Position numbers and translations under genes: made by a program
Shown here: positions 6,023 through 53,970 of the stretch, piece after piece
Layout of the letters: the number at the start of each line of letters is the position of its first letter
Position numbering within the stretch: the stretch's first letter is position 1
From: Candidatus Gastranaerophilales bacterium
Lineage (GTDB): Bacteria > Cyanobacteriota > Vampirovibrionia > Gastranaerophilales > Gastranaerophilaceae
Assembly: GCA_016280955.1 (NCBI GenBank)
Contig: JAEEHV010000038.1
Span: forward strand, 2,020 to 66,019
Reading direction: 5' to 3'
Length of the DNA stretch: 64,000 nt
The notes under the pieces: generated by a model
What the model saw: only the letters and a program-made list of their open reading frames with translations
Told to the model about the DNA's origin: nothing
Database searches by the model: none

Positions 6023-7132
6023 TCAACCTTTATTTCTCTTTTCGACAAACGGCTTTTTGATAATCTCGGCATCGTGCAATTTATCACGTATCATAATTTG
6101 AATTGTAGAGCCAACATGTAAATTGTCAACATGCTGAGCCGAAGCACCTATATATGCAAGTCCGATATTATCTCCTCTTGTGGGAGATACTCCGCCGGAT
6201 GTTACCGTTCCGATTTTTTCGCCATTGGAATATACGTCATATTCGTGTCTTGCAATTGATTTATCAAGCATTTTGAATCCGATAAGTTTTTTTCTTCCGC
6301 CATTTTGGAGCTGCTCCATTATAACTTTTTTACCGTTGTAATCTTCTGCCTTGTTCTTTGATACAGACCATGACAATCCTGCCTCAACAGGTGTAGTATT
6401 TTCATCTAAATCATTTCCGTACAGATGAAGGGCAGCTTCAAGTCTCAATGTATCACGAGCTCCTAGACCTATCGGTTTAATTCCGTATTCTTTTCCTGCA
6501 TCAAGAAGTTTATCCCAGAGATATTCGGCAAATTCGTTGCTTACCATTATCTCTACTCCGTCTTCACCTGTATATCCGGTTCTTGATATCCAAAGATTAA
6601 TATTAAACAATTCATCACGTTTAATAGAGAAGAACGGAGGCAGGTCTATAATTCCAACAGATCTTATTAAATCACATGCTTTTGGTCCCTGAAGTGCCAA
6701 AAGTGAATATTTGTGAGAAATATTTTCAATATCGGCATTAAAACCGAGTTTATTTCTCATCATCCAGTTCAGATCCTCATCAACTCTTGATGCATTTGCT
6801 ATTATAAGATATTTTTTATCTTCCAGTTTATATATAATCAAGTCATCAATCAATCCGCCTTCTTTATTCGGAAGCTGACAATATACAGCTTTTTTGTCAG
6901 TCAGTTTTGATAATTCCTGCGGAACAAGTTTATTTAAAAACGGGAGAGCATCTTCACCATGTACAATCAATTCTCCCATATGAGAAACATCAAATAAACC
7001 GACATTTTCACGAACGGTTTTATGTTCTTCTATTATTGAGGTATATTGAACCGGCATATCCCATCCGGCAAAATCTACCATTTTAGCCCCAAGTGCAATG
7101 TGTTTGTCATGTAAAAATGTTTGTTTGGTCAT
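6023..7132 (-). CDS. gcvT: glycine cleavage system aminomethyltransferase T
   Basis: FAGWDMPVQY, GLFDVSHMGE, SRTGYTGEDG, GLGARDTLRLEA. Confidence 0.96.
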   Translation of the reverse strand: MTKQTFLHDKHIALGAKMVDFAGWDMPVQYTSIIEEHKTVRENVGLFDVSHMGELIVHGEDALPFLNKLVPQELSKLTDKKAVYCQLPNKEGGLIDDLIIYKLEDKKYLIIANASRVDEDLNWMMRNKLGFNADIENISHKYSLLALQGPKACDLIRSVGIIDLPPFFSIKRDELFNINLWISRTGYTGEDGVEIMVSNEFAEYLWDKLLDAGKEYGIKPIGLGARDTLRLEAALHLYGNDLDENTTPVEAGLSWSVSKNKAEDYNGKKVIMEQLQNGGRKKLIGFKMLDKSIARHEYDVYSNGEKIGTVTSGGVSPTRGDNIGLAYIGASAQHVDNLHVGSTIQIMIRDKLHDAEIIKKPFVEKRNKG

Positions 7133-7275: not shown

Positions 7276-8514
7276 ATGGGAAAAAAGATATTAATTGTTG
7301 GAAATGGCGCAAGAGAATATGCTCTTGCAAAGAAGTTTTCAGAGGAGCATGAAATATTTGTTGCTCCCGGCAACGATACAATGAAGGAATTTGCGACAAT
7401 AGTCGATATAAGACCTGATAAGGTTAACGAACTGCTTGATTTTGCACTTGAAAACAATATTGATATGACTGTTCCTTTGGCACAGGAGGCTATACAAAAT
7501 GATATTGCTGCAAGGTTTACGGAAAATAAACAATGTATTTTTGCTCCGACAGCCAATGCAAATGTTATCTCTGCAAATAAAGTACTTTCAAAAAAAATTC
7601 TTTATAAACTCAGAATCCCGACACCTAAATTCGGTATTTTTGAAAAAGCCAATCTGGCGCTTGATTATATAAAAAATCAAAAGATTCCTTTTGTATGCAA
7701 GACAAATGACAGTAACAGTGCTGTTATTTTTACTTCTGCTTCAACGGCAAAAAACTACGTAGAAACAGTATTTACCGAAAAAAATAAAAAAATTATTATT
7801 GAAGATTATGTATATGGCACACCATTTTCATATTACGCAATTACTGACGGGTACAAAGCTTTGCCTCTCGGAAGTTCGCTGACATACAAACATTCACTTG
7901 ACGGTAACGGCGGTCAGTTAACAAGCGGTACCGGAGCATGTTCCCCTAATTATAAGTTGTCCTATGATAATGAATATTTTCTAATGGACAATGTTATATA
8001 TCCGACACTGGAATATCTGGAACGTGACGGTAATCCGTATATGGGAATAATTGGCGTAAACGGTATTCTGACAGATGACGGCGAAATAGTGGTTTTAGGA
8101 TGGCAGACATTTATGCAGGATTGTGATTGTGCCGCTGTTCTAAATTCTCTGGATGAAGATTTGTACTCTCTGTTTTACTCTTGTATAATCGGTTCATTCA
8201 GTGATGAGGTAGAGAATATAAGATGTAATAATCTCTATTCTGTTTCGGTTGTATTAAGCTGTGCTAACAGACAAAATTCGGATAATGCAATTGAGGGATT
8301 GGACAATATTGATGAAGGTACAATAATTACGTTCTATCCGTCCGTAACTAAAAACAAATATCTTGAATACAACGTTCAGAACGGAATGTCGCTTATGGTT
8401 ACATCATCTTCATCAAGTGTGGCAAAAGCTGCACAAAAAACTTATTCTGAACTGAAAGAACTCAGTTTTAGAGGTATGCAGTATCGAAAAGATATATGCT
8501 TAATGCATGCGTAA
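7276..8514 (+). CDS. PurD-like ATP-grasp protein with degenerate active-site motifs
   Basis: Keeps LIVGNGAREYALA, VAPGN and TGACSP; the canonical DGLAAGKGV and EFNxRFGDPE motifs are replaced. Start moved to the ATG of MGKKILIVG. Confidence 0.75.
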   Translation: MGKKILIVGNGAREYALAKKFSEEHEIFVAPGNDTMKEFATIVDIRPDKVNELLDFALENNIDMTVPLAQEAIQNDIAARFTENKQCIFAPTANANVISANKVLSKKILYKLRIPTPKFGIFEKANLALDYIKNQKIPFVCKTNDSNSAVIFTSASTAKNYVETVFTEKNKKIIIEDYVYGTPFSYYAITDGYKALPLGSSLTYKHSLDGNGGQLTSGTGACSPNYKLSYDNEYFLMDNVIYPTLEYLERDGNPYMGIIGVNGILTDDGEIVVLGWQTFMQDCDCAAVLNSLDEDLYSLFYSCIIGSFSDEVENIRCNNLYSVSVVLSCANRQNSDNAIEGLDNIDEGTIITFYPSVTKNKYLEYNVQNGMSLMVTSSSSSVAKAAQKTYSELKELSFRGMQYRKDICLMHA

Positions 8515-47835: not shown

Positions 47836-49068
47836 TTAAAAAGAAATAACCTCATGGAACGAATCGATTGCAAATGTATCACTCATTCCTGAGAGGAAAT
47901 CCAGAACACAGTTTTTATATTCCTGCTCATCATCAAGATGATAAATAAGTTTGTTTTTGCATCTTTTGTTTTCTTTTTCCGCTAAATTATAGTCGGAGTA
48001 TTTAGTAAGCCATCCTTCATAAATAGTGTATAACTTAGGATACAGGATTTTTTCTTTTGCGATAACATCTCTGACGTTATTGCCTGTTAAATTTTCTCCA
48101 AGCTGTTCATAAAGAGTTTCAATAATGAGAGTTGCATATTTTTTAAACTTCGAAATTCTTGGGTGGTTACAGATATTTTTGTAATTGAATTGTTTTACAA
48201 GTTTAAGCACCTGGAAGCAATCCTCAGAGAAACAAAGCCCGTCCTCTATTGAGGAATTAGCACACAGGTTCAGTATCAAAGAGTGTGTGAAAGAGGATGT
48301 GTTTAACTCGTTTATTTTAATATTGGGATAAATGGTATGAACAACATTCAATAATTCTTCTTTTTGCTCTTTTTTCAGAATACCGTATGAAATGGCATCT
48401 TCTATATCACGTCCTATATAACCGATTTTATCGGATATTTTTACAACACACCCTTCGTAAGTATATGCCCCGTTTTTACCTCCTTTTTGGATTGAATACA
48501 GATCACAGGCATCTTCTCTCGGTTTAACATATCTTTCATCAACTTCTCCGCAATGACATACAATACCGTCACGAACTGCATATGTAAGGTTTAAATTTTG
48601 CTGATAACCGCTATAGTCAGTGATAGTTTCAATTTTATCAATAAATCTAAGACTGTTATTTTCATGCCAAAAAGAGTGAAGGTTATTCGCTTCTGCAATA
48701 TCCTGCAAAACAGTTTCACCATGGTGTCCAAACGGTGCATGTCCTATATCGTGCCCGAGTGCAATAGCTCTTGCAAGCTCTTTATTAAGGTTTAGGTACT
48801 TGGCAATTGTTTCAGCAACGGAGGCTACAAGCTGAACATGCTCCATTCTTGTACAAACGTGGTCATTCTGAGGAGCAAAGAATACCTGAGTTTTATGCTT
48901 TAGCCTTCGGTATCCTTTAGAGTGCATAATCCGCATTTCATCACGTTCAAACGGAGTCCGCAAATCGTTCTCTTTTTGATAAAGTTCGGCTTCTCTTGAG
49001 ATTGCCTGTTCCCACTTGGGGTTGTTTTCATCCATTCTGACACATGAAAAATCTGCAAGCTTATTCAT
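47836..49068 (-). CDS. dgt: dGTP triphosphohydrolase-like HD-domain protein
   Basis: RTPFERD..RI.HS..YRRL.HKTQVF, TR..H, GHDIGHAPFGH.GE, SD.I.Y..RDIED, D..SGMSD. Confidence 0.9.
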   Translation of the reverse strand: MNKLADFSCVRMDENNPKWEQAISREAELYQKENDLRTPFERDEMRIMHSKGYRRLKHKTQVFFAPQNDHVCTRMEHVQLVASVAETIAKYLNLNKELARAIALGHDIGHAPFGHHGETVLQDIAEANNLHSFWHENNSLRFIDKIETITDYSGYQQNLNLTYAVRDGIVCHCGEVDERYVKPREDACDLYSIQKGGKNGAYTYEGCVVKISDKIGYIGRDIEDAISYGILKKEQKEELLNVVHTIYPNIKINELNTSSFTHSLILNLCANSSIEDGLCFSEDCFQVLKLVKQFNYKNICNHPRISKFKKYATLIIETLYEQLGENLTGNNVRDVIAKEKILYPKLYTIYEGWLTKYSDYNLAEKENKRCKNKLIYHLDDEQEYKNCVLDFLSGMSDTFAIDSFHEVISF

Positions 49069-49136: not shown

Positions 49137-51134
49137 TCAGAATCCTATACTGTTTTTCAACTCTTTGGATTTTTTTACTTTTACTTCTTCTCTTAGCATT
49201 GTTACAATTTCGTCCAAATCAATAATATCCAGAAAATCAGTTTTCTTTTTAACGGTTGCAAAATCTCCCGCAGTCAACCCTTTAATATCGATATTTTTAT
49301 CTTTAACTTTTATTCCGAAAAAGTGTTCAATTGCACAATTTACCTGTTCATTGTTCATAAAGTCGAAGCGGATTTTAAATGTAAAGCGTCTCAGAGATGC
49401 TTCGTCCAATGTATCAAGCAGGTTTGTAGTACATACAAACGGATATTCATGCGATTCCATCCAAGTAAGCATTTCATTAACTTGTGTAATTTCCCAGGAA
49501 TGTGATGCATTATTTCTGTTTTGTAAAAAGCTGTCTGCTTCATCAAAAATCAGCATCGCTTTTTTAGATTTTGCTTCCGCAAAAGCAGCGGCAATGTTCT
49601 GCTCTGATTCGCCAACCCATTTGCTCATCAAATCACTTGCCCTTTTATAAATAACTTCAACACCGAGCTGTTTTGCAAGATACCTTGCATATTGAGATTT
49701 TCCTGTTCCCGGCTCACCATACAGGCAAAGTGAAAAATTGAGCTTTCCGCAAGATTTTATTTTTTGTGTAAGATTTTTTATGTCAACGTCAGTATTAACA
49801 AGACTTTCATCGTATTCTTTTAATTCAAATTCTTTTTTGTTTTTTACGTTTTTCTTTTTCGTCACAACCTTGGCAACATTCTCAATTAGACCTTCAAAGT
49901 CATTTTCATCACCGCCAATCATTTTTGTTGTCTGAACGGCATTAGAAATAAGTGATGGAGGAATATCATAGTTTTTATTTAATTCCGTTAATTTTTCTTT
50001 GCTGACCTTTAGTTTATTCTTTTTAATAACTCTGTTCCAGATATTGAGCCTTGTTTCTTCAGACAGTTTTTCAAATTCAATACAATAAGTCATTCTTCTG
50101 AGGAAAGCCGGATCCACATCGTATATGTTATTTGTAGTCCAGATTATTGGAACGGACGTTGTTTCCAGAAGGGTATTAAGATAGCCTTTTGATGCCGAAC
50201 CTCCGTAACCGAACCCTCTGTTCATAACATCTTCGCCTTCATCAAAAAGAATACAGGCACCTTCGGTTCTGGAAAGTAAATGCTGCTTTGCATTCAAATC
50301 CACAAGTCGATCTTCTCTGTCGGCTTCTTTATAATTCATATTTCCCAATTCTGTTATAACGGAATACATAGGAATGTTTGCTTTATTTGCAATCAGTTTT
50401 GAGTATTCGGTTTTTCCTGTTCCGACACCGCCATACAGAAGAATATTAACTCCTTTTTTCTTTTGCATAACTGCCTGAGATAAAATATTTATAACCTTTT
50501 GAGTATCTTTGATATGAGAAAAATCCTCAAGTTTTAATGTTGCTTTTTGTTTTTTTCCTATAAGAATGCTGATTATTTTATCTGCAGAATCACATTGCGG
50601 ATTATCCAGAATTTCCAGAAAAATATCGTTTATACAATCACTGCGTCTGCTTTCGGTAATATTTTTCCGGTGCAGACCGTCTAAAAGACGTTCCTTCTTG
50701 CCGCATCTGAGTCCCAGATAGACTCTTGAAAAAGTGGACAGAGATTGATTTTCCAAACATTCAAAATACTTGTCAAAAATATTATTGATTTCTTTGAATG
50801 CCATATATAGTAATATTTCATACTCCATATTATTTAGTGTAAAAATCTCTTTGATAGTTAATAATTGCTGCTCAAGCTTAGTGTTTCTCGGCTGAATTTT
50901 TTCTTTAAGTTTTTTTACAACTTTTTTCATCTGTTTAGCAAAAACTTCCCTTGCTTTTGTTGACTCAAGTTCAAGGTTTCCGTCTTTATCAATACAATCA
51001 AACTGTTTCGGGTTAATCTTAAATTCGTTCAGCATAAAATCAAATACGGCATCAAACGAATAACTGTTAGTATCAGTTACCGGCATAAGTTTTTCCACAT
51101 AATCTAAAAATTTTCTTTTTTCAAAATTGTTCAT
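49137..51134 (-). CDS. tandem (two-domain) AAA+ ATPase with N-terminal helical domain
   Basis: Walker A GGVGTGKT and GEPGTGKS; Walker B ILFDE and LIFDE; AAGGAG RBS before ATG 51134. Confidence 0.9.
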   Translation of the reverse strand: MNNFEKRKFLDYVEKLMPVTDTNSYSFDAVFDFMLNEFKINPKQFDCIDKDGNLELESTKAREVFAKQMKKVVKKLKEKIQPRNTKLEQQLLTIKEIFTLNNMEYEILLYMAFKEINNIFDKYFECLENQSLSTFSRVYLGLRCGKKERLLDGLHRKNITESRRSDCINDIFLEILDNPQCDSADKIISILIGKKQKATLKLEDFSHIKDTQKVINILSQAVMQKKKGVNILLYGGVGTGKTEYSKLIANKANIPMYSVITELGNMNYKEADREDRLVDLNAKQHLLSRTEGACILFDEGEDVMNRGFGYGGSASKGYLNTLLETTSVPIIWTTNNIYDVDPAFLRRMTYCIEFEKLSEETRLNIWNRVIKKNKLKVSKEKLTELNKNYDIPPSLISNAVQTTKMIGGDENDFEGLIENVAKVVTKKKNVKNKKEFELKEYDESLVNTDVDIKNLTQKIKSCGKLNFSLCLYGEPGTGKSQYARYLAKQLGVEVIYKRASDLMSKWVGESEQNIAAAFAEAKSKKAMLIFDEADSFLQNRNNASHSWEITQVNEMLTWMESHEYPFVCTTNLLDTLDEASLRRFTFKIRFDFMNNEQVNCAIEHFFGIKVKDKNIDIKGLTAGDFATVKKKTDFLDIIDLDEIVTMLREEVKVKKSKELKNSIGF

Positions 51135-51202
51135 GGTTTTGCTCCTTGTTAAACGGGATATCACATTCCCTTTTGCTATTCATTTTCGTTTCTTACATAT
51201 AC

Positions 51203-51234
51203 ATAATATCAGACAAATGCGACAGAAATGGACG
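51203..51234 (-). promoter_or_regulatory. WYL-activator-like (-26 element) promoter of the AAA gene
   Basis: CGTCCATTTC-TGTCGC-N10-TATTAT on the minus strand. Confidence 0.55.
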
Positions 51235-51262
51235 GAGGAAGAAAAACTTTTTTCTTCCTCCG
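51233..51262. terminator. 14-bp perfect inverted repeat between the DUF2130 and AAA genes
   Basis: cggaggaagaaaaa-ct-tttttcttcctccg. Confidence 0.6.
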
Positions 51263-51299
51263 GTAAAATAAAAAAGAAATGTTCTCTGTTGATTCCAAT

Positions 51300-52610
51300 T
51301 TATTTTTTCTTTTTTTTGTCCGTTATTTTTAAGGCATCAAATTTTGCTTTCATTGTCGGATTATTTCTTGTAAGCTTTTTAATACTAAGGTCTTCTACCT
51401 TATTGTTAGCGGAGCTGAGGTGCTTTTCGGATAAAAGCAGTGCATCTTTTATACTCTGCAGATTTTTGATGGCTTTATCAATACCAGATATAGCATCATT
51501 AAACCTCAAGCCTGCATCTTTCACGTTTTTAACAAATTTATCCTTAAAATCGTTTAATTCGGCTTCGAAATTGGACACATCAATGTTTTGCATTTTTATC
51601 CGCTCAAGTTCTTTTCTGTATTCAAGCGAATGTCTTGCTGCATCTCTGAGCAGGGTAATTATCGGAATAAAGAACTGAGGTCTTATTACATACATTTTTT
51701 CATATTTATAAGAAACATCAACAATTCCGCTGTTATATAAATCACTTTCCGGCTCAAGAAGTGATACTAAAACTGCATATTCACATTTCTTTTCTTTGCG
51801 GTCTTTATCGAGTTCTTTAAAGAAATCTTCGTTCTTTTTCTTAGTCGATGTTGTGTCTGCTTCGTTTTTCATCTCAAACATAATCGATATATATTCATTT
51901 TTATCTTCATCGTATGCTCTGAAAATATAGTCGCCTTTACTGCCGGATTTTACATCATTGTCTTTTTCAAAATACGAACCTGAAAAAGCAGTAGAACGGA
52001 ATCTGTTGAACTCTGTTTCGCAGTGTTGTTCAAGAGTTTCACCAATCATTTTAGTTGATAATTTTGCTTTAAAATCTTTGTATTGTTCGATTGTTTCATC
52101 TTTGAGCTTAAGCTGAATTTCATATCTTTCTTTGAGTGATTGTTCTCTGAGCAGACATTCTTTTTCTGTTAATGCCTGTTCGCTTTTAAGTTTTTCAATG
52201 CTGTTTTCTTTTTTCGCTATTTCTTCGGTTAGTTTTGACTCAAGTTTTTTTAATTCAAGCAGCTTATCTTTCTCAAAAGATGAAAGCTGATTCCTGAGTT
52301 CGGCAATTTCTTTATCTTTTTCGGCAGCAGTTTCTTTAACGGCAGATTTTTTAATAAGGTCGCTTTCTTTAATTTTAGCTTCCAGTTTTGCAATTTCAGC
52401 ATCTTTTTTCGTTAATTCAATATTGAAGCCTTTTTCTGCTTCCAGTTTTGCAACCTGAATTGCCTGATTTTTTTCTGATTCAAATTGCTGCTCACGGCTT
52501 TGAAGCTCTTTAGAGAATTCTTTATCTCTTACCTGTTTAAGTATTGCAGCATATCCTGCTTCATCGATTTGAAATTTTTCACCGCATTTTGGGCATTGAA
52601 GATTGTTCAT
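51300..52610 (-). CDS. DUF2130-like coiled-coil protein with a putative PD-(D/E)xK nuclease domain
   Basis: N-terminal CPKCG..F.IDE, long coiled coil, KGD.....IMFEMKNE and YEKMYVIRPQFFIP; start at ATG 52610 with GAGGT RBS. Confidence 0.8.
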   Translation of the reverse strand: MNNLQCPKCGEKFQIDEAGYAAILKQVRDKEFSKELQSREQQFESEKNQAIQVAKLEAEKGFNIELTKKDAEIAKLEAKIKESDLIKKSAVKETAAEKDKEIAELRNQLSSFEKDKLLELKKLESKLTEEIAKKENSIEKLKSEQALTEKECLLREQSLKERYEIQLKLKDETIEQYKDFKAKLSTKMIGETLEQHCETEFNRFRSTAFSGSYFEKDNDVKSGSKGDYIFRAYDEDKNEYISIMFEMKNEADTTSTKKKNEDFFKELDKDRKEKKCEYAVLVSLLEPESDLYNSGIVDVSYKYEKMYVIRPQFFIPIITLLRDAARHSLEYRKELERIKMQNIDVSNFEAELNDFKDKFVKNVKDAGLRFNDAISGIDKAIKNLQSIKDALLLSEKHLSSANNKVEDLSIKKLTRNNPTMKAKFDALKITDKKKKK

Positions 52611-52662
52611 GGTTATTACCTCTTTTTTGTTTAATTTAGTATCATTAGTTTTTGGTTGTTTT

Positions 52663-53109
52663 TTAGTTGTTTTTGTTGTGTACATAAGTACCTCCTTTTA
52701 TTTTAGTACAGTTGGAAAATTTTGGACTTGGTTCGAGTTCGTTAATGTTATCCATTACGAACCGGTAAATCTGCCTGAAGTATTCTATGTTATCGTTTGT
52801 AACAAATTGTTCGTGACAGTTTGTACAGTAGAATTGGATTGTATGTGCGCCGGAAAGAACCGAACCCCCGCACATATAGGGGATTAAAGTATTAATTTTG
52901 CAGTTTGGACAGATTTCTTTTTGAAACAATCCGCTTTTCAGCCGGTATGAACCGAGCCAGATAAGAGCCGCATCAAGCGGCATTTGGTCATTAAGTTCGG
53001 AGCTGTTTATATGAGAAAAAATCTCAGGATAAATTTCTCCGGCATAATGAGTTTTTGTTTTTGACGGAAGCTGCTTTTCAACTTCACTTTTTGATTTGAA
53101 TTTTGTCAT
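52663..53109 (-). CDS. hypothetical protein with a C4 zinc-ribbon
   Basis: CPNC and CTNC pairs; GAGGT RBS; first gene after the SAM riboswitch terminator. Confidence 0.75.
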   Translation of the reverse strand: MTKFKSKSEVEKQLPSKTKTHYAGEIYPEIFSHINSSELNDQMPLDAALIWLGSYRLKSGLFQKEICPNCKINTLIPYMCGGSVLSGAHTIQFYCTNCHEQFVTNDNIEYFRQIYRFVMDNINELEPSPKFSNCTKIKGGTYVHNKNN

Positions 53110-53210
53110 TTTTCGTTACCTCATATTTAATATTTCTTATCAGGTTTCCCTGATTTTATACGTTTGATAACTCATAGAGGCACGAATGGTTAACACATAT
53201 CTTTTTTAAG

Positions 53211-53249
53211 GAAAAGAAAAAGGCTCATCGCAATGACAAGCCTTTTCTT
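53211..53249 (-). terminator. riboswitch-associated intrinsic terminator
   Basis: Minus strand aagaaaaggctt-gtcat-tgcg-atga-gcctttttctttt. Confidence 0.8.
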
Positions 53250-53284
53250 GCAAGCAAAGTTAGTTACACAAAGCAGAAAGGAGG

Positions 53285-53381
53285 TCTCATCATTCAAGCA
53301 TTAGCACCTTCAGAATAAAATATATTTATTCCGGGTTGCTGTGTAGTCATCGGGCTTGTCCCTCGTACACTCTCTATGAGA
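53285..53381 (-). ncRNA. SAM-I (S-box) riboswitch aptamer, P4-less variant
   Basis: P1 tctcat/atgaga; AGAG; P2 gtgta/tacac with kink-turn and GAGGGAC..GCCCGATGA; AGCAACC...AAGGTGCTAA (P3); loop CAAG can pair with CTTG (pseudoknot). Confidence 0.88.
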
Positions 53382-53416
53382 TTGGTTATTCAATTTTCAA
53401 TGTATTTGTTATTGTT

Positions 53417-53488
53417 TTAATCATCAAAGAAATCTTCGAGTTCATCCCAATAACAGAATAAAAGTAGTCCTATTAGCCAGAGAGGCAT
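53417..53488 (-). CDS. unannotated 23-aa small protein MPLWLIGLLLFCYWDELEDFFDD
   Basis: AAGAGGTGG Shine-Dalgarno 5 nt before ATG; candidate promoter directly upstream. Confidence 0.55.
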   Translation of the reverse strand: MPLWLIGLLLFCYWDELEDFFDD

Positions 53489-53527
53489 TTTTACCACCTC
53501 TTTTTGTTTATTTTCTCTGATATTTTT

Positions 53528-53559
53528 ATTGTAAAATACTGCTGTGTCAAAAATGGACG
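53528..53559 (-). promoter_or_regulatory. WYL-activator-like (-26 element) promoter
   Basis: CGTCCATTTT-TGACAC-N10-TACAAT on the minus strand. Confidence 0.55.
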
Positions 53560-53576
53560 TATGTATTTTATTATTT

Positions 53577-53867
53577 TTAAATTACTTTCAGCATCGGATG
53601 TTTTTTTATAAAACGAAGCTTGCTGAATGCTTGTGCTTCAATCTGTCGGACTCTTTCTCTTGTAATTCCGAAAATATTTCCGACTTCATTAAGAGTTTTC
53701 GGAATATTGTCAGCCAAACCGTAACGTAATGCTATTACATCCTGTTCTTTTAATTTAAGCTGCTGAAAGTCAGATACTTTAAAAGTTATTTCAAATTTTT
53801 TGTTGTTAGAATCTTTTGTAATAACTATTTCGTCTTTGTTTCTTGTAACATTAATTTCCTGTTTCAT
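53577..53867 (-). CDS. standalone sigma70 region-4 HTH protein
   Basis: VIALRYGL....[29 protein letters not shown]; no region 2 or 3. Confidence 0.85.
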
Positions 53868-53938
53868 ATTTACCTCTTTTTTTATAAATTGTATTTATTT
53901 ACTTATAACGAGATTCACAAATTTTCCCTTACAAATAC

Positions 53939-53970
53939 ATAATACAATACCCCCTTGTCAAAAACGGTCA
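53939..53970 (-). promoter_or_regulatory. WYL-activator-like (-26 element) promoter
   Basis: TGACCGTTTT-TGACAA-N10-TATTAT on the minus strand. Confidence 0.5.

Follow-up and report, generated by a model that had tools for sequence, protein, structure and literature searches.

A predicted DriD-type promoter class associated with defense and DNA-handling genes in a Candidatus Gastranaerophilales genome

Findings

When examining a 64,000-nucleotide stretch of DNA from a Candidatus Gastranaerophilales bacterium (hereinafter, the window; contig C53:2020-66019 of the source genome, G000), we found three sites, all on the minus strand and all of the form yGWCC-N5-TGWCRn-N10-TAnnnT (A, B and C in Table 1), that probably are promoters dependent on a WYL-domain transcription factor of the DriD family and, as such, parts of a DriD/DdaA-type activator regulon of defense and DNA-handling genes. 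The three sites, with their identical spacing, had been pointed out in the initial annotation of the window, and re-reading of the sequence confirms them as written, including the upstream element, CGTCC, that is common to A and B. None of these sites has a -35 hexamer 17 bp upstream of the -10 element: the hexamers in this position, CCATTT, CCATTT and CCGTTT in A, B and C, respectively, match TTGACA in 0, 0 and 1 of the six positions, and just one of the sites has the TG of an extended -10. Throughout the class of sites described here (hereinafter, boxes), the sequence CCrTTT occupies the position where a -35 element would be.

The genome in which these sites reside (2.78 Mb, 34% GC, 93 contigs, 97%-complete; the closest named relatives are metagenome-assembled genomes, or MAGs, from the rumen) has canonical ordinary promoters: the pattern TTGACN-N17-TATAAT yields 34 matches, of which 31 are intergenic, and the distribution of spacings peaks sharply at 17. 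Because the housekeeping promoters are of this canonical TTGACA-N17-TATAAT type, the promoters with the N10 spacing represent something distinct; for the same reason, the -33/-7 promoters of the Bacteroidetes type are not relevant here.

Scanning the genome with the core pattern GWCC-N5-TGWCA, with nothing required downstream, produced 37 matches, of which 17 are intergenic (P = 3e-6, given that intergenic DNA accounts for 14% of the genome), compared with 3 of the 44 matches to the reversed pattern that served as the control; the genome-wide enrichment upstream of genes that the initial annotation had proposed to look for is thus borne out, and the enriched intergenic motif sits mostly just upstream of genes. 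The sequence TAnnnT is found exactly at N10 after 15 of the 17 intergenic core matches and after none of the 20 matches inside genes (Fisher test, 1.5e-8), the binomial probability for TAnnnT at N10 being 1e-19 at a base rate of 0.04. The profile of offsets is dominated by N10, the runner-up being offset 5 (6 of 17 sites in the source genome and 8 of 15 in a relative, G008); in G008, 14 of the 15 core boxes are followed by TAnnnT at N10. The possibility that TTGACA within the box is an ordinary -35 element with a -10 at 16-18 nt was rejected given that the unbiased offset profile shows no peak at 16-18 and has its main peak at N10. A sigma-54 promoter (TGGCAC-N5-TTGC) was rejected by eye, the characteristic GG/GC pair being missing.

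Two weight matrices gave concordant results. The one derived from the three window sites alone detects 12 matches above 14 bits in the source genome, 11 of these intergenic and all conforming to yGWCC-N5-TGWCAn-N10-TAnnnT, and the one trained exclusively on 15 sites of G008 ranks B second, C third and A sixteenth among the 5.55 million positions of the source genome, with 20 of its top 22 matches in intergenic regions. The three window sites are not a chance resemblance. Nothing more than the low complexity of AT-rich intergenic sequence speaks for chance, and this explanation, the probability of which we consider negligible, is refuted by the P values of 1e-6 to 1e-19 and by the independent recovery of the sites with a matrix from another genome. 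By contrast, the weak fourth copy that had been suggested to precede position 53109 does not belong to the class: it scores -7.9 bits, a value equaled or exceeded at 7,344 positions of the genome, so it is a chance occurrence, and both invariant GWC triplets are broken.

Across about 20 sites, the box has two GWC half-sites that are separated by 7 bp; the center is AT-rich, and G, C and C are invariant in both halves. It is asymmetric, with GWCC as the distal and TGWCA as the proximal half, and it always faces the gene, its distance to the -10 element being constant. Additional conservation is seen within the spacer and around the position where transcription is expected to begin: at roughly one site in four, GTAA(G/C) starts 6-7 nt past the -10 element (window positions 51196-51191 and 53932-53927; C6:40456, C25:8564, C25:161 and C36:118734), another subset has AAAAnnCAGA past the -10, and the spacer often contains AGGGGTA.

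The geometry of these sites had been compared in the initial annotation with that of PafBC-type promoters; these read tGTCgg(N10)tA(N3)T, their element occupies positions -23 to -28, and they lack a -35 (PMC8635444). The N10 spacing and the lack of a -35 hold as published, but the assignment to the PafBC type does not: because of the conserved upstream half-site (the CGTCC shared by A and B) and the single regulator gene, the arrangement is of the DriD/DdaA type. The binding site of DriD is ATACGAC-N7-GTCGTAT, with an AT-rich center (PMC10853764), so the CGAC-N7-GTCG-like palindrome given for this protein in the initial annotation is correct. The promoter DNAs of DriD targets didA and CCNA_03891 read CGTCCGTTTCTGGCGC-N10-CAAGGT and CGACCGTTTCTGTCGC-N10-CAATCT or, as given in the cryo-EM paper, ...ACGTCCGTTTCTGGCGC-ATGGCTCGGC-CAAGGT... 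and ...ACGACCGTTTCTGTCGC-AATGCGCGGA-CAATCT..., and the same paper states that DriD promoters have no -35 and that the distance between the site and the -10 does not vary (PMC13004042). The published DriD promoters and window site A (CGTCCATTTCTGTCGC) agree in their letters, and in both, 10 nt separate the box from a hexamer that has A in position 2 and T in position 6. Given this match in both letters and spacing, the window box is a DriD box. The site of DdaA, which activates DNA-damage and anti-phage genes, is CGWCA-N5-TGWCG (PMC12392091).

The candidate regulator

The factor had been predicted to be a WYL protein encoded outside the window, and such a gene exists. The Pfam WYL model detects a single gene in the source genome, on contig C6 (Table 1), that encodes a 324-amino acid protein with helix-turn-helix (HTH), WYL (PF13280) and WCX (PF25583) domains. 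To speak of one WYL gene in this genome would nevertheless be wrong because searching with the protein also brought up a paralog of 42% identity on contig C58 and a fragment with a stop codon on C93. The best match of the C6 protein in the PDB is DriD of Caulobacter (8tp8/8tpk; E about 1e-42, residues 7-315, 32% identity), and the newer entries 9pfq, 9pfv and 9pga match it equally well; all five PDB sequences at E <= 0.01 are one protein, either full-length, as in 8tp8/8tpk, or truncated, and no BrxR or CapW chain is among the matches at this threshold. The recognition helices of the C6 protein (RRTAERIRDA) and DriD (RRTAERMRDA) differ by one Ile/Met exchange, and that of the C58 paralog is the same as in the C6 protein. 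The residues with which the recognition helix and wing of DriD read the DNA (Arg36, Arg37, Thr38, Arg43 and Lys62) are all conserved in the C6 protein, and so is Arg2; in DriD, Arg37 reads the G of CGAC (PMC10853764). In the pocket that binds single-stranded DNA (ssDNA) in DriD, the aromatic core (Tyr168, Tyr192, Tyr240 and His241) is retained.

The gene for the C6 protein is preceded by a box in its own promoter, 48 nt before the start codon, with a second box 366 nt upstream, and altogether seven boxes lie around it at C6:40.4-49.1 kb. We also compared 61 genomes of relatives, counting boxes by the pattern that includes the -10, with the reversed pattern as the control, and calling WYL homologs by protein search at E <= 1e-10. 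Box counts track the presence of this WYL clade: the source genome, with its own WYL gene, has 15 boxes (3 in the control), G008, with a 90% identical ortholog, 15 (0), G059, with a 60% identical ortholog, 7 (0), and G054, with seven WYL paralogs, 9 (2), and among the 43 genomes without a WYL match, 40 have 0-2 boxes. A WYL homolog is present in only 18 of the 61 relatives. A box lies within a 4-kb locus at 13 of the 24 full-length WYL loci of the relatives, with about 0.05 expected; in most cases, the box is found either in the promoter of the next gene or 43-70 nt ahead of the start of the WYL gene. The box in the regulator's own promoter is located 48 nt before the start in G008 as well, and at 43-70 nt in G059, G054, G053 and the second G008 paralog.

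At the promoters of WYL paralogs in several relatives (L017, L020, L030 and L031) and at C58:9181 in the source genome, the box is reversed and overlaps a complete promoter in which yGACA, 17-18 nt from TATAAT or TAAAAT, mimics a -35. Judging from the sequence, this arrangement looks like autorepression of the WYL paralogs. The box appears to function in two arrangements, forward with N10 at the targets and reversed at the paralogs.

Under the mechanism we propose, a homodimeric protein with winged HTH (wHTH), WYL and WCX domains, most likely the C6 protein, would bind the two GWC half-sites, one helical turn apart and centered near -31, which would place the proximal half-site between about -28 and -23, with exactly 10 nt between it and the downstream TAnnnT -10 element. 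With the -35 hexamer missing, recognition of that element would be taken over by the bound dimer, which would bring in the housekeeping RNA polymerase. The structures of Caulobacter DriD show the dimer substituting for -35 recognition in this manner, PafBC doing so differently, and the asymmetry of the box along with its fixed orientation fits the asymmetric docking of DriD. The factor would activate rather than repress, and transcription would be expected to begin about 7 nt past each -10; by analogy, the inducing signal could be ssDNA, DNA damage or phage.

Several observations weigh against this interpretation. At some sites, those on C81, C36 and C80, a second plausible -10 is found 16-18 nt past TTGACA/TTGTCA, and these sites may be conventional promoters repressed by the factor. 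BrxR and CapW, WYL regulators that head defense operons, are repressors. In the C6 protein, four of the five ssDNA-contacting arginines of DriD as well as the tryptophan are replaced (Arg178 to Lys, Arg189 to Ser, Arg204 to Tyr, Trp206 to Tyr, Arg207 to Ser and Arg288 to Leu among the pocket residues), so the effector may differ from that of DriD, and ssDNA sensing by the C6 protein is an analogy rather than a finding. Finally, G026 has the block of window genes and the boxes, yet no WYL match at E <= 1e-10; given that G026 is a 97%-complete MAG, its WYL gene may simply be unbinned.

Some of these points would fit an alternative that we consider unlikely, namely, that the box is the operator of a BrxR/CapW-type WYL repressor that keeps constitutive, -10-driven promoters shut until a signal arrives. 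Indeed, the WYL gene heads an McrBC defense operon, as BrxR-type repressors do (PMC9122601, PMC11662680), the reversed boxes at the paralog promoters have a repression geometry, and a few sites have the alternative -10 at 16-18 nt. However, the window sites lack a -35 at 17 bp from the conserved -10, with the extended -10 at one site only, and the box is asymmetric, with one orientation and one distance, features that repression does not need and DriD activation does (PMC13004042). Because of the missing -35, the oriented, fixed geometry and DriD being the closest homolog, with no BrxR or CapW among the detected relatives of solved structure, we do not assign the regulator to the BrxR/CapW type.

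Another alternative, to which we give little credence, is that the boxes are read by a different protein, such as an alternative sigma factor, the sigma-region-4 protein encoded in the window or an unrelated regulator of the island, and that the WYL link is mere co-residence on a mobile island. In G008, nearly all of the boxes are confined to a single island, which contains further small HTH genes as well, and the boxes of G026 come without a detected WYL gene. This explanation is difficult to reconcile with the presence of boxes 43-70 nt upstream of WYL genes that come from different contexts and families and share no more than 35-60% identity, and with the match to the experimentally defined DriD and DdaA sites combined with a recognition helix that, apart from the Ile/Met exchange, is that of DriD. 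The sigma-region-4 protein, specifically, was rejected as the reader because it is absent from G008, a genome with 15 boxes. Dependence on a DriD-family activator is the reading adopted below.

Genes behind the boxes

In the window, promoter A is located 62 nt before the likely ATG (51134) of the gene for an IetA-like AAA+ ATPase, a start codon that follows AAGGAG; the open reading frame (ORF) as listed has 675 amino acids from a GTG at 51164. A homolog of this gene, 76% identical, is found inside the G008 island discussed below. The gene for a dGTPase-like HD phosphohydrolase lies directly downstream and probably is on the same transcript.

Promoter B precedes a small ORF, a SAM-I (S-adenosylmethionine) riboswitch, an ORF for a Cys-rich protein and the DUF2130 gene. 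Homologs of the Cys-rich protein, with 68-72% identity, occupy the same position in G008 and G026. The linkage between the box and a downstream DUF2130 gene is retained in four genomes of two families (the source genome, G008 and G026 in one, and G059 in the other). The riboswitch is placed in series behind a DriD-type promoter (53284-53559), ahead of the Cys-rich and DUF2130 genes: as read from the sequence, expression of this operon would require two signals, that of the regulator and low SAM. The SAM-I riboswitch is present also in G008 (L042:13010-13137, minus strand), with the same order of promoter, riboswitch and gene, and a stretch matching the riboswitch region, by sequence match rather than by Rfam, is in the same place in G026 (L057, about 6524-6915). 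The gene order in G026 (C49; L057) is sigma-region-4 gene, box, small ORF, box, Cys-rich ORF, DUF2130, box, PBP2, with the boxes intact.

Promoter C precedes the gene for a 96-amino acid protein that consists of sigma-70 region 4 only. Its identity to the corresponding region of the full-length sigma-70-family genes, which were compared for all 61 relatives, is about 52%; the small, stand-alone copy is found only in the source genome and in G026. The gene for this protein is itself predicted to be driven by a promoter that needs no -35. Speculatively, its role could be that of a decoy that draws phage anti-sigma factors or that of a competitor that shuts down -35-dependent transcription while the DriD-type promoters stay active.

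Table 1. Coordinates of the predicted promoters, the genes behind them and the WYL genes in the source genome (positions without a contig name are those of the window)
Feature	Position	Strand	Description
Promoter A	51203..51234	-	CGTCCATTTC-TGTCGC-N10-TATTAT; predicted to drive the AAA gene, probably also the HD gene behind it
Promoter A, parts	CGTCC 51234-51230; TGTCGC 51224-51219; TATTAT 51208-51203	-	distal half-site; proximal half-site; -10
Promoter B	53528..53559	-	CGTCCATTTT-TGACAC-N10-TACAAT; predicted to drive the small ORF, SAM riboswitch, Cys-rich ORF and DUF2130
Promoter B, parts	CGTCC 53559-53555; TGACAC 53549-53544; TACAAT 53533-53528	-	distal half-site; proximal half-site; -10
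Promoter C	53939..53970	-	TGACCGTTTT-TGACAA-N10-TATTAT; predicted to drive the sigma-region-4 gene
Promoter C, parts	TGACC 53970-53966; TGACAA 53960-53955; TATTAT 53944-53939	-	distal half-site; proximal half-site; -10
Proposed fourth copy	53153..53184	-	CGTGCCTCTA-TGAGTT-N10-TAAAAT; not a site
HD phosphohydrolase, dGTPase-like	47836..49068	-	PF01966, PF13286; PADLOC dGTPase 1.1e-53
AAA+ ATPase, IetA-like	49137..51134	-	PF00004 1.5e-39; PADLOC IetA 2.9e-33
DUF2130 protein	51300..52685	-	PF09903 1.2e-86
Cys-rich protein, 148 amino acids	52663..53109	-	no Pfam or PADLOC match
SAM-I riboswitch aptamer	53284..53382	-	RF00162, 63.1 bits, E 2.7e-12; between promoter B and the Cys-rich ORF
23-codon hydrophobic/acidic ORF	53417..53488	-	MPLWLIGLLLFCYWDELEDFFDD; between promoter B and the riboswitch; read from the sequence
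96-amino acid protein	53577..53867	-	sigma-70 region 4 only; PF04545 3.8e-15
WYL regulator gene	C6:47713-48687		closest to DriD
WYL paralog	C58:8120-9073		42% identical
Helicase-nuclease	C36:118802-121975		UvrD + PD-(D/E)XK; behind a box
ComM-like protein	C81:2250-3770		behind a box
MBL/RMMBL nuclease	C20:3390-4769		behind a box
Zn-ribbon membrane protein, 134 amino acids	C80:6221-6625		behind a box
Accessory PBP2-RodA pair	C28:6462-9375		behind a box
Truncated FtsZ paralog	C53:69830-70498		behind a box
Two sites	C25		

The predicted regulon of the source genome includes about 20 promoters: those of the three window operons, those of an island on C6 and those of the scattered genes listed in Table 1. 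The C6 island carries, on one strand, the genes for the WYL protein, McrB, McrC, a DnaB_C-like protein and a retron-type reverse transcriptase (RT) and, on the other strand, genes for a 174-amino acid protein and an SMC_N fragment. The WYL gene itself heads the McrBC operon; McrBC, the AAA and HD pair, and the RT with the DnaB_C-like protein represent phage-defense-like modules. A tRNA gene (C6:38222-38296; L002:222-296) about 2 kb from the first box of this island is a possible integration site. The box-driven PBP2-RodA pair, truncated FtsZ and Zn-ribbon protein suggest control of elongation and division upon induction, in a manner comparable to Caulobacter DidA; housekeeping copies of PBP2/RodA (C36:35317-36990 and C4) and of FtsZ (C71) are encoded elsewhere. 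The promoter of the accessory PBP2 gene, with the first 111 codons, is duplicated as a fragment at C90:32240-32622, in which the distal half-site is degraded (TGTCA). A core, SOS-like regulon was considered and rejected: recA (C35:13614-14654) lacks a box as well as any obvious operator, and a LexA DNA-binding domain could not be detected in the genome, which is 97% complete, so the regulon is accessory rather than the central damage response.

In G008, the target genes that are scattered in the source genome are clustered together, forming an island that is about 48 kb long (C13:1-48.7 kb; L041-L043). This island encompasses the genes for the 174-amino acid protein, the SMC fragment and the MBL nuclease; the retron RT and DnaB_C; an FtsZ-like protein; the AAA ATPase; the UvrD-PD-(D/E)XK helicase-nuclease; McrC and McrB; two WYL proteins, the second, divergent gene facing the first; PBP2-RodA; DUF2130 (75% identical) and the Cys-rich protein (72%); and two DNA-methyltransferase-like genes with large adjacent ORFs that probably are restriction-modification (RM) systems. 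The island holds 15 core boxes, 14 of which have TAnnnT at N10, so most of its gene clusters are preceded by a box.

A broader possibility, which we put forward tentatively and consider less probable than its negation, is that the DriD-family factor is the positive master switch of a multi-system immune island, perhaps sensing a signal other than ssDNA, so that defense would be deployed by activation, unlike the derepression that is characteristic of BrxR and CapW. The island so controlled would comprise the retron-type RT, McrBC, the IetA-like AAA ATPase with the dGTPase-like HD protein, RM systems and DUF2130, together with the accessory PBP2-RodA, the truncated FtsZ and the free sigma-region-4 domain, all under promoters that lack a -35, one of these promoters being gated by a SAM riboswitch in series.

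Comparison with known systems

Promoters that lack a -35 and are activated by WYL proteins have been previously demonstrated in Actinobacteria (PafBC), Alphaproteobacteria (DriD) and Moraxellaceae (DdaA). The same box and spacing are now found in the non-photosynthetic cyanobacterial lineage Gastranaerophilales, an almost letter-for-letter conservation across phyla, and this defines a concrete, predictable regulon for an uncultured gut and rumen group, with about 20 promoters that include those of uncharacterized defense-like genes, such as DUF2130 and the Cys-rich protein. The system also provides a natural example of a whole defense island that is wired to one probable activator. A literature search for papers naming both WYL and Gastranaerophilales returned none among the matches listed.

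The closest parallel is DriD of Caulobacter crescentus, a homodimeric wHTH-WYL-WCX activator of the SOS-independent DNA damage response. The homology extends over the full length of the protein, the DNA-contacting residues are kept, the operator is GWC-N7-GWC with an AT-rich center, and there is N10 to the -10, without a -35, as in didA and CCNA_03891; furthermore, the box is present in the promoter of the regulator itself, and genes related to cell division belong to the regulon. Unlike DriD, the present regulator comes from the phylum Cyanobacteriota and is accessory, its targets are mostly defense-island modules, recA has no box, the half-sites are asymmetric (GWCC and TGWCA), and the ssDNA pocket is altered.

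PafBC of mycobacteria shares the proximal half-site followed by N10 and TAnnnT, also without a -35, but is a heterodimer of two co-transcribed paralogs that acts on a single, non-palindromic -26 element, whereas here there is a second conserved half-site 10 bp upstream and a lone regulator gene, closest to DriD, that is followed by McrB on C6, its paralog being on another contig. BrxR and CapW share the domain architecture and, as the first gene of a defense operon (here, McrBC), the genomic position, but these proteins repress on inverted repeats that overlap complete promoters, in contrast to the oriented box in a fixed position, without a -35, that is described here; the WYL regulators of the BrxR type that head defense operons have been characterized as repressors (PMC9122601, PMC11662680).

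DdaA of Moraxellaceae, compared here by description rather than by sequence, has nearly the same site architecture and combines DNA-handling and anti-phage genes under one regulator, and the undetectable LexA DNA-binding domain in the source genome parallels the description of DdaA regulation as replacing SOS in Moraxellaceae. Unlike the present system, in which the regulator and most of the targets are island-borne and patchy in their distribution, DdaA is a conserved core regulator of recA, uvrA and ssb. The coupling of DNA-damage and anti-phage genes by one WYL activator is already published for DdaA; what is new in the case described here is the lineage, the finding that box and spacing are nearly identical in different phyla, the wiring of an entire island and the changes in the effector pocket.

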